Assembly (NCBI GenBank): GCA_951406725.2
Contig: OX597815.1
Coordinates: 89,342,001-89,406,000, forward strand
Direction: 5' to 3'
Length of the DNA stretch: 64,000 nucleotides
DNA from: Octopus vulgaris
Taxonomy: Eukaryota
A program made the position numbers and the translations under genes. Below, in pieces: positions 16,925 through 63,900 of the stretch; within the stretch, counting starts at the first letter, position 1, and each line of letters starts with the position of its first letter. Below the pieces are notes generated by a model that saw only the letters and a list, made by a program, of their open reading frames with translations, did not search any database and had not been told where the DNA came from.

Positions 16925-17097
16925 TACAATTGCAGCGTGGGAGGTGTTTGTAAGCCATTTAAGAAACACACAAAAGCCGTTCGATTCACTTCAACATTTA
17001 AGTTTAATTTGTCAAAATATTTTCGTCGCTAATATCCGCGACCTGTTCACTGACAAAAATCCGTGCTGCATCACTTGCTATGCGAGTACATCTCCCT
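16925..17097 (-). mobile_element. short non-coding insert in (TA)n carrying a hammerhead-like fold
   Basis: Unique ~170 bp between two (TA)n tracts; contains the fold at 17008-17057. Confidence 0.6.
17008..17057 (-). ncRNA. minimal type-I hammerhead ribozyme, G3-C8 core variant
   Basis: Reverse complement: TTTGTCA-GTGAACA-g-GTCGC-ggatatta-GCGAC-GAA-AATATT-T-TGACAAA. 7-bp stem I, 5-bp stem II, palindromic stem III. Confidence 0.65.
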
Positions 17098-17899
17098 ATA
17101 TATATATATACATATATATATATATATATATATATATATATATATATATATATATATATATATATATATATATATATATATATATATATATATATATATA
17201 TATATATATATATATACATATATATATGTATATATATACATATATATATGTATATATATGAGTATATATATATATATATATATATATATATATACATGTT
17301 GAGTCGGCAAGAAATTCATTTCGATGTTTGCAAATAGATAGTGTTAGGATTTTTTAAATGTCTTTTGTGAAGAAATAATTTATATATCTTTATATATAAA
17401 TTATTCTTGCGTGTAGAATTAAGTCCTACTCATGTCGGTCACGAGAACACATTCATAAATTAACACCGTCAAAACACTAACCACTCCTCTTGTTTCCAAA
17501 TTCTTCATAGTCTACAGACTCCTATTTAATGTACCTACTGGGACCAAGTTCTTATTTGTTATGTAGTGTATCCAATGCAAATATTGGTGTCAAAGTGAAG
17601 TCTTTATCCACCCTGCATCAAGTATACTAAAAATATGATTAAAATAGCTGACGATTACATTTATCAAACAAATGAAGTGAACTGCCCAATGGAAGCTTAA
17701 TTACCAAAAGCCCATTTGACTCTTTTGATTCTTTCTTCTCTCTATCTGAAGACCAAACGAGGTGGACGTGTCCTACACTCACAACATTTTAGTAACGTTT
17801 AGTTGAGTCAAACTTAGAAAATATGTGTTTACTTGTGCGTTTATGTGTGTTCTGTATATGTGTAGCCGTGTGAGTGTGACTGGCAAATAAATAGCAATA

Positions 17900-18185
17900 T
17901 ACAGGGTGGAGCAGAGAAGACGGACGTTTTTGAAATGGCTATTACTCAGCGCCAGGGGAGAGACTTATGTCGTACATGTACCATTCAGTCCGTGGTATGG
18001 CGCTTTGGGCGATAGAGCATTGCATGATTGCCTAGACAGTTACCTGAAGAATAACCAGTCTGTCACAGCAGTTCAGCGTACGTTTCGGCGCCACTTCACC
18101 ATTCACCGAAATCAGGTTGTTGCCACCCGTAACATAATCTTACGTTGGGTGAATGCACTTCGTACACGAGGTACACTAATTTCAA
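17900..18185 (+). pseudogene. Tc1/mariner 5' remnant (DUF4817-like HTH)
   Basis: Starts TACAGGGTG; YLKNNQSVTAVQRTFRRHF.....TRNIILRWVNALRTRGTL. Confidence 0.7.
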
Positions 18186-19990
18186 GAATTCTCTGAGTAA
18201 GTAATTAAGCGTCGAAGAACAGCAGAACAACTGGTTTCGTTTCTGCTAATGGTAGCTAAATAACAGTGTTTATGATTTTCGCAGTTAAATTCTTTTATTA
18301 TATTTTACTTTTAATTATATTTGAAATAGTTTATGTTAGTTTTGAAAGTGATTTTCTAACAAATTTAGAATTTAGTATGAACTGTACACTTGGGATCGTC
18401 TATCATGTATGTATTCAGTTTCCTGCAACGACTTTCTTATTTCTATTGCTATAGTATCCTAGTAGTAGCTTTCGGCATGCTGCAGTGTTAAGTTTGTAAA
18501 GCAATATAAATTTCAGTAACTTTCTGCTCGTGTGATTTACGTTTCTGGAACAGTTACAAGATATAGAAGCTTAAGTCAATTTTATTAACTGTAATTGTTT
18601 GAAGTGTCATTCTTCAGAAATAGTAAAATGCAGAACAGAAAATATTAGACTCTCGTGCTGAGTGTAAATATCTAATGTTTCAGGAATAACTATTCATTAG
18701 ATGCAAATATTATACAATCGCTTTTCTTTCTTGTGAATCTTGTTGAATCAACGAACCCGAAAGTTTGTGATTATATTTCTTTCTTAGAGAAGACTTTGTT
18801 GAGAATAGGCAACCGTACATGATAATACTTCGAAGAGGCATCAGTCATCGAGAATCTTTTTTTTATATCAATCGTATTCGTAAATTTCTAAAGACTGCAA
18901 TAGATAATGATACTTTATTTAACACATTTTAGATGGTGTATGTGTATGTGTGTATGCATTTTTTTCAGTAATTTGAGGTATCAAATACACCTGAATACAC
19001 AAATAAAGCTTTCATACTTAAATTAAATACATACTAATTATCTTTCAAATTTGTGTGTTTCAAATTTCAGAATAAGAATATTTGAATATATTGAATCGTC
19101 ATACATAGACATGCACTCCAACACAAACATATAAAAAGAAAGAAAAACTATTATCTATGTTAGAAATTACTATTAGAATGTCGTCCACCTACAGAGAAAA
19201 GGAGTAACATTCTTGTATTTAGCATTTGTTTATAACATTTGTTTATTTATAACATATGCTTTCTTACGAAGTGGAGTATGAATATGTTTTTCCCTTGTTA
19301 TCAACGGATCCTTAGCTTTCATAAACAGAGAGGAAGGATCTTTATTGCCCGAGTCTTTATGGCTGTTTTATTGATAATATTTCATACAATGTTTAATTTC
19401 ATCTGGATTTGCTTCTACATCACAACCTTTTTGTATGTATAAGTCGAGTAATTGCTTCGAAAGTATTTTATGTGAACTGTGGCTAGTGGTACATGCTGAG
19501 CAAACTTTTCATATTTTGTTTCCTGATCTCTGGATAATTTGGTATTATGTGAGTGTTTGACACGTTTGCAGTTGGTTTTATTGATACCAACGACACTTTA
19601 TTTTTTAACGCTCAGATAGTTTTACATTATCAATTCGGAATGAGCAAAGGATGATATCTAGTTGCGTCCCTATAGTATATTTCGGCGGAAGGAAGGAAAC
19701 GATAAAAAGGAACGGAGGGGTAGAGCGGTGCTCTGAGTTAATACATGAATGGTGCATGTTGACCGTCAAAAAGTAAGAAAAAATCATTCATTTTTTCCTA
19801 CAGCAAAAATTAACAAATCACACGCACAGGTATACACACACACATATACGCCCTCGGATATACATACATACTCACACACTCTCACACACACAAACACGTA
19901 ACCACACACACACACACATATATATATATATATACTAATATATACATGCATACATACACACACATATATATATATATATAATTATATTTT

Positions 19991-60755: not shown

Positions 60756-60800
60756 TATATATATATATATATATATATATATATATATATATATATATAT

Positions 60801-60932
60801 ATTTATTATATAGAAGGAGCTTCTACAGGACTAGAACTGTTTCATTCAAGAGAAATCATCAGGAAGCTTCCTGATGATTTCTCTTGAATGAAACAGTTCT
60901 AGTCCTGTAGAAGCTCCTTCTATATAATAAAT
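60801..60932. repeat. perfect 132-bp palindrome encoding a hammerhead on each strand
   Basis: Centre at AAG|CTT (60866/60867); + strand AGCTTC-CTGATGA-tTTC-tctt-GAAt-GAA-ACAG-ttctagtc-CTGT-A-GAAGCT (60865-60915). Confidence 0.88.
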
Positions 60933-63900
60933 TAATTTTACTCTGCTATGTATTGAGTACCTTATTTACTGTGGTTAACCCAGAATCAACCCGGGACCTA
61001 CATATATATATATATATATATATATATATATATATATAAAAGATTAGTTCGACTCGCCATCAGGCCACTGGCCAAGGGTTTGTTACGTTATCCCTAGTTT
61101 TTTCCAAGGATATATTCAATTCTTTACGAGTTATCAAATCGCATGTGCATTAATGACATTTTGTTATCATTAAAATTTTATAAGCCATCTCTGAATCACT
61201 GTTGAAGAACATATTCAGGTAAATCTTAAACAAATTTTGGGGTCCAAGAGCGGCCAACCATTCATATTTAAACTGCATAAAATAGCATGATAAGACGTTT
61301 TGATTGATTGCGCATTGAATTCATATGGAGTTAAGACAATGTTTTTACATATTTTACTGAATATATTTCACGGGAAAACCGACGTTGAATGCATACTTTA
61401 CACCAAATCGGAACAATTAGGAGTTTTCACGTAACACTTTCCATTTCAATAGGCATGGTTATTTATATAATTATGTTTAGATGGAAATTCAATTAGCTAA
61501 TAGAAATTAGATTCAATAAAATTAGAATGTAGCTGGAAGTAATACGAAGTTTAGCATTAAAATTTTCTGTTTTTTAGCTACTTTTATTTGATTATCCTTT
61601 ATGTTGATGATGGCATTAAAAGCGGATTATATTTCTGAGCAGATTTTTGCATGTACATGTTAACATATAATTAACGGTGGTGGTGACGATGAAGCTATTC
61701 ATCAAGAAAAGTTTATGATATTAATGATCACGACTAGAATGACAATACTAAAATATTTAATAATTACAATAACACTAAGTAAATTTCAAACCTTTTCTTT
61801 CATATTGTTTTTAATATACTTCTTTCCTCTCTCCTTACATTTGTTTCTTCACTAAACTAATGCCTCACAACGCTCCTTATAAACGTTGTTTAAAGTAAGC
61901 AATAACTGAAATGCGTCTCACAGACAGATGAGATTACATACTAACTAATATCACATAAAATGTGTTTGAAATTAGCAATCACAGAAATTTTATTCGTCGT
62001 ACATAAAATTTAAATTAGAGAATTACCTGATTAAGTTTGTGGGCTGTGAGTGAAAACGTGTAAAATATATTTGGTTTTAGGTAGTAAAATTAATCATTGT
62101 TCGCATTCACTTCTGCTAGCCTGTAATTACGGCAAAATGCCGGAGTTCCAAGATACGAATATATCATTTACAGTGTATGTTTGTTTAATTCTCTATATGT
62201 TGCGTAATGCATTAGAATTCGTGAAAGGTGCCTGGGTTTATTCTTTGTCGTTGCTATGGTATTTTTCATTTAGAAACTGTACTCAAATACCAGTTGTAAT
62301 TACTTTAATGATCTATGAAATATACTTCACATGTACTTTGTCATATTTCAGTCGTAGTCGAAATTAACAAAAATATAGTGGAGTTATATAACATTAGGTG
62401 AAATTTGTGCTTCTACTATGGTTTTTACCAGCGAAATAACCTGATTGCAACCGAGAATGCAAACCTCCATTCAGAAAACTGGTTGTGAAATATCTGCAAT
62501 TATTGGTCGGATTTTAAACAATGGAGGTGTATTTGATTGAATTGATATGTGAACATTAATGACAATTATATATCAACATTGGTGCAATGAAAGGCATTGA
62601 ACCAACATATTTAAACACAAAATGTAATGGTTCATGGCAAGATACTGCAAGTTAATCTACCATCTCTTTTATATTAAACTTCTGATTTCCATTAACTAGA
62701 ACTGCACGACGTAAATATATGCGTTGAATTCGATAAAATCGCGCCGTGCAAGAAGCCTTGCGTTAGTTTCATAGTTATATTTTATATTTTCAGATTTGGT
62801 TGAAAAAGTATTAACCTTCCGTCCTTCGGTGATAAATGAAGTACATACTGTCGAAATGTTGCAGCTGATAAAATAAACACCGACTCCTGAAACATTACAA
62901 GTGTATTTTGGTTTTACTTCATATTAATTCATTTGTCACATCGATTAGCTTGAGGTTCGATATCAGTATGCAGAACCACATGCGTTTGTCTTCTACCGTA
63001 ACCTCCGTTTGACAAATAAACTGTGAAAGGAAAAACGTAAAACCGAAACCGTGCTAGAAGCCTTTCATATATATATATATGTACATATACTTTACGAGAT
63101 TGTAAACCTGTGAAAAGTATAAAACGTTTTGAAATGATGATTACATTCTAGGCTCCTTCTATACCAAAGTTGTAGATGGGCTTCAAGTGAACCCAATCTA
63201 CAACAGGGTTTCGTTTTCGAGAAAAGCCATTTCAATCTGTTTTATAATAACACTATCAAGCGCAGCTCCTGCATACTCGCTATTACCCCATGTTTGACCA
63301 TGCATATCACTATTTCATAAAATACCAACTCATAGTGATAATTAATCAAAGGGTTTCTACTTGTCATATAACCACCTACAATGAAGCGCGTATATATATA
63401 TATATATATATATATATATATATATACATATATGCTTCTTCTAATGAGCATATATGACTATATGTATATTAATATGAATGCAGGGTGAGTGACGATATCT
63501 ATATACTTATTTTTTCTAATTTTCAAGGAAGGACACGGAAACTAGACTGTAATGAATTAACATTAAACAGAAACTTATTCCTGCGTAGAATGGACCAGTC
63601 GTTTTGTCGCAAGGTACAAGGGATACCTTAGATCTTTCAAAGAAATAAAAGAGCAAACTAATAGAAAAGTATTGAAATGGCCAGTCTTCACCAATTTATT
63701 ACTTTATTATCACTAAATACTTAATTTTATTCTTCAGTCTATTGTTCAATCGGTTCAGCATCTTTTCCGTTTAATCTGACCATTAAGGTAGAATGGTAAT
63801 TCATAGTCCACCCAGCCCTTTTCTTTCCCTCTCCATTTATTCATGTATTTTGTATTTCGATTGTATTTGTAATCTGTCTCTGCCTGTCACTGTATTCATT

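Follow-up and report, generated by a model that had tools for sequence, protein, structure and literature searches.

Hammerhead-bearing inserts in TA repeats of Octopus vulgaris: truncated ends of coding Penelope-like elements and three families of retrozyme type

Introduction

Penelope-like elements (PLEs) that carry hammerhead ribozymes in their pseudo-long terminal repeats (pLTRs) have already been described, and so have their inverted 5' copies, the restriction of the tail to one end and a bias towards (TA)n (PMC8557442, PMC3846280). Their hammerheads are minimal and of the dimer type, and circular forms have been proposed for them (PMC4209133). Metazoan retrozymes of the kind without long terminal repeats (non-LTR) have been described (PMC7229834), and retrozymes of 51-972 bp have been presented as non-autonomous PLE derivatives (Li et al., bioRxiv 10.64898/2026.07.22.740005). 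Variants of the hammerhead core are treated in PMC3088659, PMC3884650 and PMC6765202. For an anole PLE, in vitro work reports that both DNA strands are cut and extended, that reverse transcription starts at two internal RNA sites and that the protein is a predicted dimer (PMC11167929). Here we analyze a 64,000-nucleotide (nt) stretch of the Octopus vulgaris genome (contig OX597815.1, positions 89,342,001 to 89,406,000 of the forward strand). This whole stretch is referred to as the window, and its positions are counted from its first letter. An initial sequence-only reading had singled out five hammerhead-bearing inserts in it, labeled here A to E, as one non-autonomous system of fold-back elements homing to TA microsatellites. 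No octopus Penelope, Neptune or retrozyme hammerhead elements were found in the literature by title or abstract start.

The analysis separates the five inserts into two kinds. A and E are 5'-truncated ends (pLTRs) of protein-coding PLEs. B, C and D, judged by their sequence, are closed non-coding tandem units of the non-LTR retrozyme type that bear PLE insertion marks. For B, C and D the initial claim stands in that they are non-coding, tandem and retrozyme-like; the single system is not supported, as there are five families and two of them are coding PLE ends. The link to PLEs is borne out.

Five hammerhead-bearing inserts within TA repeats

Type-I hammerheads were searched for with a custom descriptor, using 200 block shuffles of the 64 kb as a control. 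Once A and C were known, the descriptor was widened to accept U4C, one more base ahead of stem II and, at 3-8, every Watson-Crick pair. In this widened form it yielded 14 matches in the window, none of them outside the five inserts (A, 1; B, 1; C, 7; D, 3; E, 2), against a mean of 0.03 and a maximum of 1 in the shuffled sequences (n=200). The stricter first descriptor had given six matches with at most one core mismatch in B, D and E (0 in 12 shuffles), and no match in A or C. An Rfam scan of the window showed no hammerhead among the best 150 of 314 matches, which were of the low-complexity miRNA type only. Stem III is palindromic or near-palindromic in all five inserts, and in the predicted best dimer it pairs between copies for B, C, D and E, while the copies of A pair differently.

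All five inserts are bordered on both sides by (TA)n tracts and have a two-ended, head-to-head geometry. Their bodies represent five separate families, with many young copies genome-wide. Among the best 38-40 candidates scored per genome search, family copies are spread over many chromosomes at 92-100% identity. Exact hammerhead words occur 1102 times in the genome for the D lineage and 376 times for C, with 0 occurrences of the reversed control words. The five inserts are genuine hammerhead-bearing mobile DNA within TA repeats.

The sequence-only reading thus proved right about the minimal type-I hammerheads, the (TA)n location and the largely unrelated bodies. It had seen an inverted left part and a sense right part in four of the inserts; the geometry holds and the count rises to five, since the right 26 nt of A are a sense 3' tail. 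The positions it gave hold as well, except that B starts at about 20474 and not at 20527. The absence of a meaningful ORF (open reading frame) applies to the window copies, none of which contains one, but not to families A and E, which are coding elsewhere in the genome.

Inserts A and E are truncated ends of coding PLEs

Insert A (16926-17097) consists of an inverted arm (16926-17072) and a sense tail (17070-17097) between (TA)n tracts at 16907-16926 and 17097-17294. Its hammerhead, on the reverse strand at 17008-17057, has a G3-C8 core, an extra base before stem II, a palindromic stem III and a predicted cut after 17015. Insert E (60801-61001) lies between a (TA)n tract that separates it from D (60755-60802) and another to its right (61002-61037). 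Its portion 60801-60932 is a perfect palindrome with hammerhead cores at 60871 (forward strand) and 60862 (reverse strand). Many E copies, including that of the window, are such perfect palindromes, centered at the 5' edge of the hammerhead.

Long copies reveal what the two inserts were truncated from. Upstream of the E pLTR lie a microsatellite-rich 3' untranslated region (UTR) and then RT (reverse transcriptase) and GIY-YIG-type sequence. Locus L228 holds a Neptune-type arrangement of pLTR, 722-aa ORF, 3' UTR and pLTR, so that a hammerhead-bearing pLTR stands on both sides of the ORF; the pLTRs are 4.8 kb apart, and the window insert is 96-99% identical to both. Long A copies extend about 1.1 kb upstream to an ORF, at most 1025 aa long, in which a Pfam GIY-YIG domain scores above the cut-off. 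The A pLTR was seen behind the ORF only, and no copy with a pLTR upstream of the ORF was found. The E protein has no Pfam match of its own, and an E-type profile gave nothing meaningful against the sequences of solved structures. One of its homologues matches RVT_1 and another GIY-YIG, and look-alike clusters carry both. Profile alignments, weak (E about 5e-4 to 8e-4) but colinear, span the RT and endonuclease motifs. Together with the motifs and homologues, they support the assignment of the E protein as RT/GIY-YIG.

[quoted passage not shown] Upstream of their pLTRs is a 3' UTR and then an RT/GIY-YIG ORF, not the closed non-coding unit of a retrozyme. They differ from the published EN+ PLEs in their tails (about 55-105 nt versus 30-40 nt) and in having long 3' UTRs, rich in microsatellites and measuring about 1.1 kb in A and 2.5 kb in E. 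Cysteine clusters precede the GIY-YIG motif in A, E and a further family, F, with a spacing in E and F that does not quite match the published Neptune CX2-5CxxC linker; the Neptune clade label for these PLEs is tentative, given from motifs, not from a tree. Where A inserted outside TA, target duplications of about 12-14 nt were present in four of four insertions inspected.

The hammerheads of the window share with metazoan PLE hammerheads (PMC4209133) the extra base between 9 and 10.1, the palindromic stem III, folding predicted as dimers and the occurrence of two motifs, on opposite strands, at a distance of 100-700 bp. They depart from them at the 3-8 pair. The natural variant in PMC4209133 and PMC3088659 is U3-A8, whereas family A has G3-C8, which is published as an engineered rescue mutant. 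A G3-C8 core was present in 117 of 121 parsed family A matches (overlapping loci counted). We found no natural G3-C8 hammerhead in the literature, where this core appears as an engineered or tested variant only, supplements being outside the coverage. Family A thus combines a fixed, swapped G3-C8 core and a UUU cleavage triplet with a young, ORF-bearing PLE (locus L314; window 17008-17057).

Several further observations concern the coding families. F, an intact Neptune-type PLE of 727 aa, is abundant, bears a hammerhead of its own, has ends flanked by TA (L220-L224, L318-L347) and is a candidate helper; 60 of 63 listed matches of its ORF contain no stop. One frameshift, in a C-run between RT and endonuclease, is common to many E-family ORFs and leaves 506-aa frames, and others are in frame (L154, L153, L231); it marks a defective subfamily or else is an artefact of sequencing. 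In its 3' UTR, the E element also harbors an old head-to-head fragment of a D relative (L228:5393-5445), which many E copies carry.

Inserts B, C and D represent non-coding tandem families

Insert B (20474-20850) is a head-to-head copy of a 354-nt unit, with the left arm reaching the far and the right arm the near of the two preferred 3' end sites described below. Its hammerhead (20641-20686, forward strand) has a palindromic stem III and a predicted cut after 20680, and its (TA)n tracts lie at 20445-20472 and 20850-20901. Insert C (41962-45489; tracts at 41939-41962 and 45486-45509) has a 507-nt unit, with an inverted arm of 2.0 units (41962-42956), a sense arm of 5.0 units (42949-45489) and seven hammerheads. 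A C monomer, taken from predicted cut site to predicted cut site, spans 43714-44220 on the forward strand with the core at 44166. Insert D (59048-60755; target tract on its left at 58900-59047) is built of a 589-nt unit, 0.9 of which makes up the inverted arm (59048-59579) and 2.0 the sense arm (59581-60755). Its three hammerheads have a U4C core and an extended stem II; the corresponding forward-strand monomer spans 59861-60449 with the core at 60370.

The longest stop-free stretches in the units are 85 (B), 60 (C) and 67 (D) codons, and comparison of the units with PLE proteins detected no similarity (best E 0.47). Mutually, the units share at most one 17-nt match; a weak resemblance exists between the C and D tails (p 0.02, post hoc). 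As circles, B, C and D are predicted to fold strongly (z -8.9, -6.8 and -4.2; 30 shuffles). In C and D, consecutive units carry hammerheads, in the window copies as well as in arrays that reach 12 units. B shows a 347-357 nt period in partial tandems. All three families have dispersed young copies with defined ends on many chromosomes.

Within the D lineage, the older D2 subfamily has the same unit-to-unit junction as D, and the youngest subfamily carries U4C where the older ones have U4. Contigs of four runs, guessed to be RNA, cover most of the D unit; they carry no information on its transcription, strand, circles or ends. Covariation of stems was checked for the D lineage: in 25 chosen hammerheads 98% of cells are paired, with double-sided changes at 2 of 4 stem II pairs across subfamilies, giving support for covariation in stem II from few independent events. 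An old relative of B, at 78% identity, was noted at window positions 55640-55770; stem III of its hammerhead is a different palindrome, and the cleavage site is broken.

B, C and D resemble metazoan non-LTR retrozymes (PMC7229834; bioRxiv 10.64898/2026.07.22.740005) in their non-coding tandem units with one type-I hammerhead each, a GC content of 33-44%, dispersal as monomers to multimers and coexistence with PLEs. The retrozymes reported in 2020 measure 150-450 bp (PMC7229834), and C and D are larger; the 51-972 bp of Li et al. include all three units, so the 0.5-0.6 kb units do not stand out as large, contrary to what had been claimed. D differs from the retrozymes of PMC7229834 in its long stem II insert and U4C. 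All three families differ from published retrozymes in their head-to-head copies, whose two internal 3' ends are defined and lie in (TA)n. The main text of PMC7229834 does not contain the words 'inverted' and 'microsatellite', and the sampling of Li et al., as described, included no mollusc. We consider B, C and D to be three new families of a known retrozyme kind, which Dfam or Repbase may already annotate.

Insertion anatomy and the near/far rule

The insertion loci analyzed are the top-scoring copies (24 of D, 22 of C and 29 of B) and are therefore biased to young, long copies. Head-to-head loci number 19 of 24 for D, 18 of 22 for C and 13 of 29 for B. The 3' ends are followed by (TA)n in most cases (D 35/43, C 30/39, B 25/42), compared with a background of 3.7%. 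In each family they fall at two preferred internal sites, 55-105 nt apart and mostly at TA-like letters.

The two ends of an insertion do not use these sites at random. One near and one far end were found in every scorable locus (C 17/17, D 15/15, B 12/12; 44/44 in total, p about 1e-13). This count omits the window C copy, which is cut off in its locus, as well as four D loci and one B locus with one end elsewhere; in none of these were the two ends alike. The same pattern holds in the coding families after removal of duplicates (F 10/10, E 23/23, A 19/20; 52/53 in total), with the reservation that the E and A queries each held one end, which biases the counts. We found no statement of this rule among 15 of 61 papers listed for Penelope tails, head-to-head insertions and twin priming.

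The two arms of an insertion also share their minor alleles (64/67 in D and 32/32 in C, compared with 8% and 14% between insertions). There is one haplotype per insertion. Arms are longer than one unit in 31 of 45 cases for D and 32 of 41 for C, reaching 10.4 units and running unbroken through the hammerheads. The longer arm is the one with the near end in 7 of 17 C loci and 6 of 14 D loci, and the two 5' breakpoints of an insertion lie mostly at unrelated positions. Of the 16 arrays inspected, three (L244, L236, L235) display variants with a period of two or three units, possibly due to dimer or trimer templates or to local duplication.

Proposed mechanism and alternative explanations

These properties are probably best accounted for by a PLE-type insertion in which the RT/GIY-YIG enzyme cuts both strands of the (TA)n, the ends prime at two internal sites on RNA of one source, and the resulting cDNAs are joined. 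The RT/GIY-YIG protein, probably a dimer, would cut both strands of the tract, and each DNA 3' end would then serve as primer for reverse transcription; of two AU-rich sites inside the RNA, separated by 55-105 nt, each end would use one. A single RNA, or a single source locus, would supply both cDNAs, which would be joined at their truncated ends. The template would be a multimer or a re-ligated circle, and the hammerheads would cut mainly as dimers, via the palindromic stem III. By this route, B, C and D were likely copied into (TA)n by the enzyme of a coding PLE. Self-cleavage and circles remain predicted, and the helper of B, C and D putative.

Much of this scheme has a counterpart in the anole Poseidon PLE (PMC11167929). 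There, the tail is set by two internal RT start sites, AT-rich targets are cut and extended on both strands, and a dimer is predicted. The anole start sites, however, showed no difference between strands in that study, whereas the arms of one octopus insertion almost always differ, and the target here is (TA)n.

A number of points weigh against the proposed route. Helper searches with RT queries returned families E, F and A only, none identified as the helper of B, C or D, in a comparison that covered three intact coding families of a 2.8-Gb genome. The E, F and A pLTRs share only short nested fragments with B, C and D, and the tails of the latter resemble those of E or F weakly and inconsistently (post-hoc p 0.004-0.8). 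Arm 5' ends are not enriched at the predicted cut (3/45 and 3/41, with 2.3 and 2.4 expected), so that the DNA gives no sign of cleavage. U4C, present in the youngest D subfamily, lowers hammerhead activity in vitro (PMC3088659), and eight of nine Xenopus retrozyme dimers remained uncleaved in vitro (bioRxiv 10.64898/2026.07.22.740005). The covariation in D stem II amounts to about three subfamily-level events, and DNA-level tandem expansion fits the period-2/3 array patterns as well as multimer circles do. The biases of the locus sample and of the E and A queries, given above, belong here too.

The strongest alternative is that B, C and D spread as single-unit circular RNAs: hammerhead-cut monomers would be ligated, and reverse transcription from the two sites would roll round the same circle for both arms. 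Long arms unbroken through hammerheads, a single haplotype per insertion, the predicted structured circles and the closed unit kept in D2 would all be explained, and circles have been shown for coral, mussel and axolotl retrozymes (PMC7229834). An uncut linear multimer transcribed from a genomic array predicts identical patterns, though; the anole PLE inserts in vitro with no need of hammerhead cleavage (PMC11167929), and D carries U4C. We give this alternative somewhat less than an even chance. A bolder version, which we regard as doubtful, has a PLE dimer sitting on one circular ribozyme RNA at two fixed sites, priming both cut (TA)n ends and rolling round the circle in both active sites to produce head-to-head multimers in one step. 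The near/far rule would be its footprint, and the hammerhead of family A would be active with a natural G3-C8 pair.

It is unlikely that B, C and D are simply pLTRs of coding PLEs not found here, with arrays arising by local unequal crossing-over. A and E did prove to be exactly such pLTRs, as the sequence-only reading had allowed its units might be, the three arrays with periodic variants would fit, and Li et al. propose local amplification of PLE termini. Yet in 142 loci (515 kb, partly overlapping) no unit of B, C or D was continuous with a PLE ORF, the matches to PLE proteins being few decayed neighbors. Moreover, multi-unit arrays recur on many chromosomes with PLE-type ends, and D2 keeps the unit junction.

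For rotifer PLEs it has been proposed that the first cDNA folds back and primes itself; such an origin of the inverted arm is rather improbable here. It would account for the haplotypes common to both arms and for the E palindromes, and palindromic junctions are reported in PMC3846280. It needs nested arms of fixed polarity, however, and the 5' breakpoints are mostly unrelated. In C and D the near-end arm is often the longer, which fold-back synthesis does not allow; the arms of C and D are not copies of each other, and the claimed fold-back origin is abandoned for them. Finally, chance folds or assembly artefacts of repetitive DNA, for which one might cite the descriptor tuned on the data and the Rfam result, are refuted for practical purposes by the shuffle control, the hundreds of exact genomic copies, the compensatory stem changes and the insertion-specific haplotypes.

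Neighboring sequence

A decayed Penelope/Poseidon-type PLE with an RT thumb and a GIY-YIG-like end lies at 40390-41375 of the window. A damaged motif resembling a minimal hammerhead is located by it (about 41325-41375), and an intact version is present in locus L159. Further TA-inserted families with different bodies, at window positions 16705-16787 and in L093, L095, L115, L283, L302 and L307, have a short tail motif in common with C, which suggests a larger superfamily that may use one helper. About 15 additional distinct type-I hammerhead motifs, a count made without a shuffle control, occur in 1.28 Mb of loci; two have U3-A8 and good stems. They are located in the flanks of L011, L037, L049, L053, L056, L124, L155, L158, L254, L265, L271, L281 and L283. 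Non-LTR retrotransposon RT frames (Pfam RVT_1 or zf-RVT) were mapped at 53649-55139, 52220-53261, 5883-6395 and 7943-9292, the last adjoining (AAT)n/(GAA)n tracts. A DUF4817 helix-turn-helix fragment (17891-18196) is probably a DNA-transposon remnant.

Significance

Published work already covers retrozymes, PLE tails, inverted arms and TA targeting, and most of the biology in the window is known: two PLE ends of the ordinary truncated sort, and three retrozyme-type families that are new, with no new class. What a specialist would look for here is the two-site rule with its counts, the sharing of haplotypes and the G3-C8 core fixed in family A. Through the near/far rule, the qualitative 'tail at only one end' becomes a sharp limit on possible mechanisms, and the G3-C8 core offers a cheap test of selection for catalysis on PLE hammerheads. 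In the published work covered here, two questions are left open: how PLEs make tandem and inverted insertions, and whether animal retrozymes ride on PLEs. In the octopus genome, very young retrozyme insertions bearing PLE signatures number in the hundreds and intact PLE ORFs in the dozens, and the helper, the form of the template and two-site priming are therefore directly testable in it.

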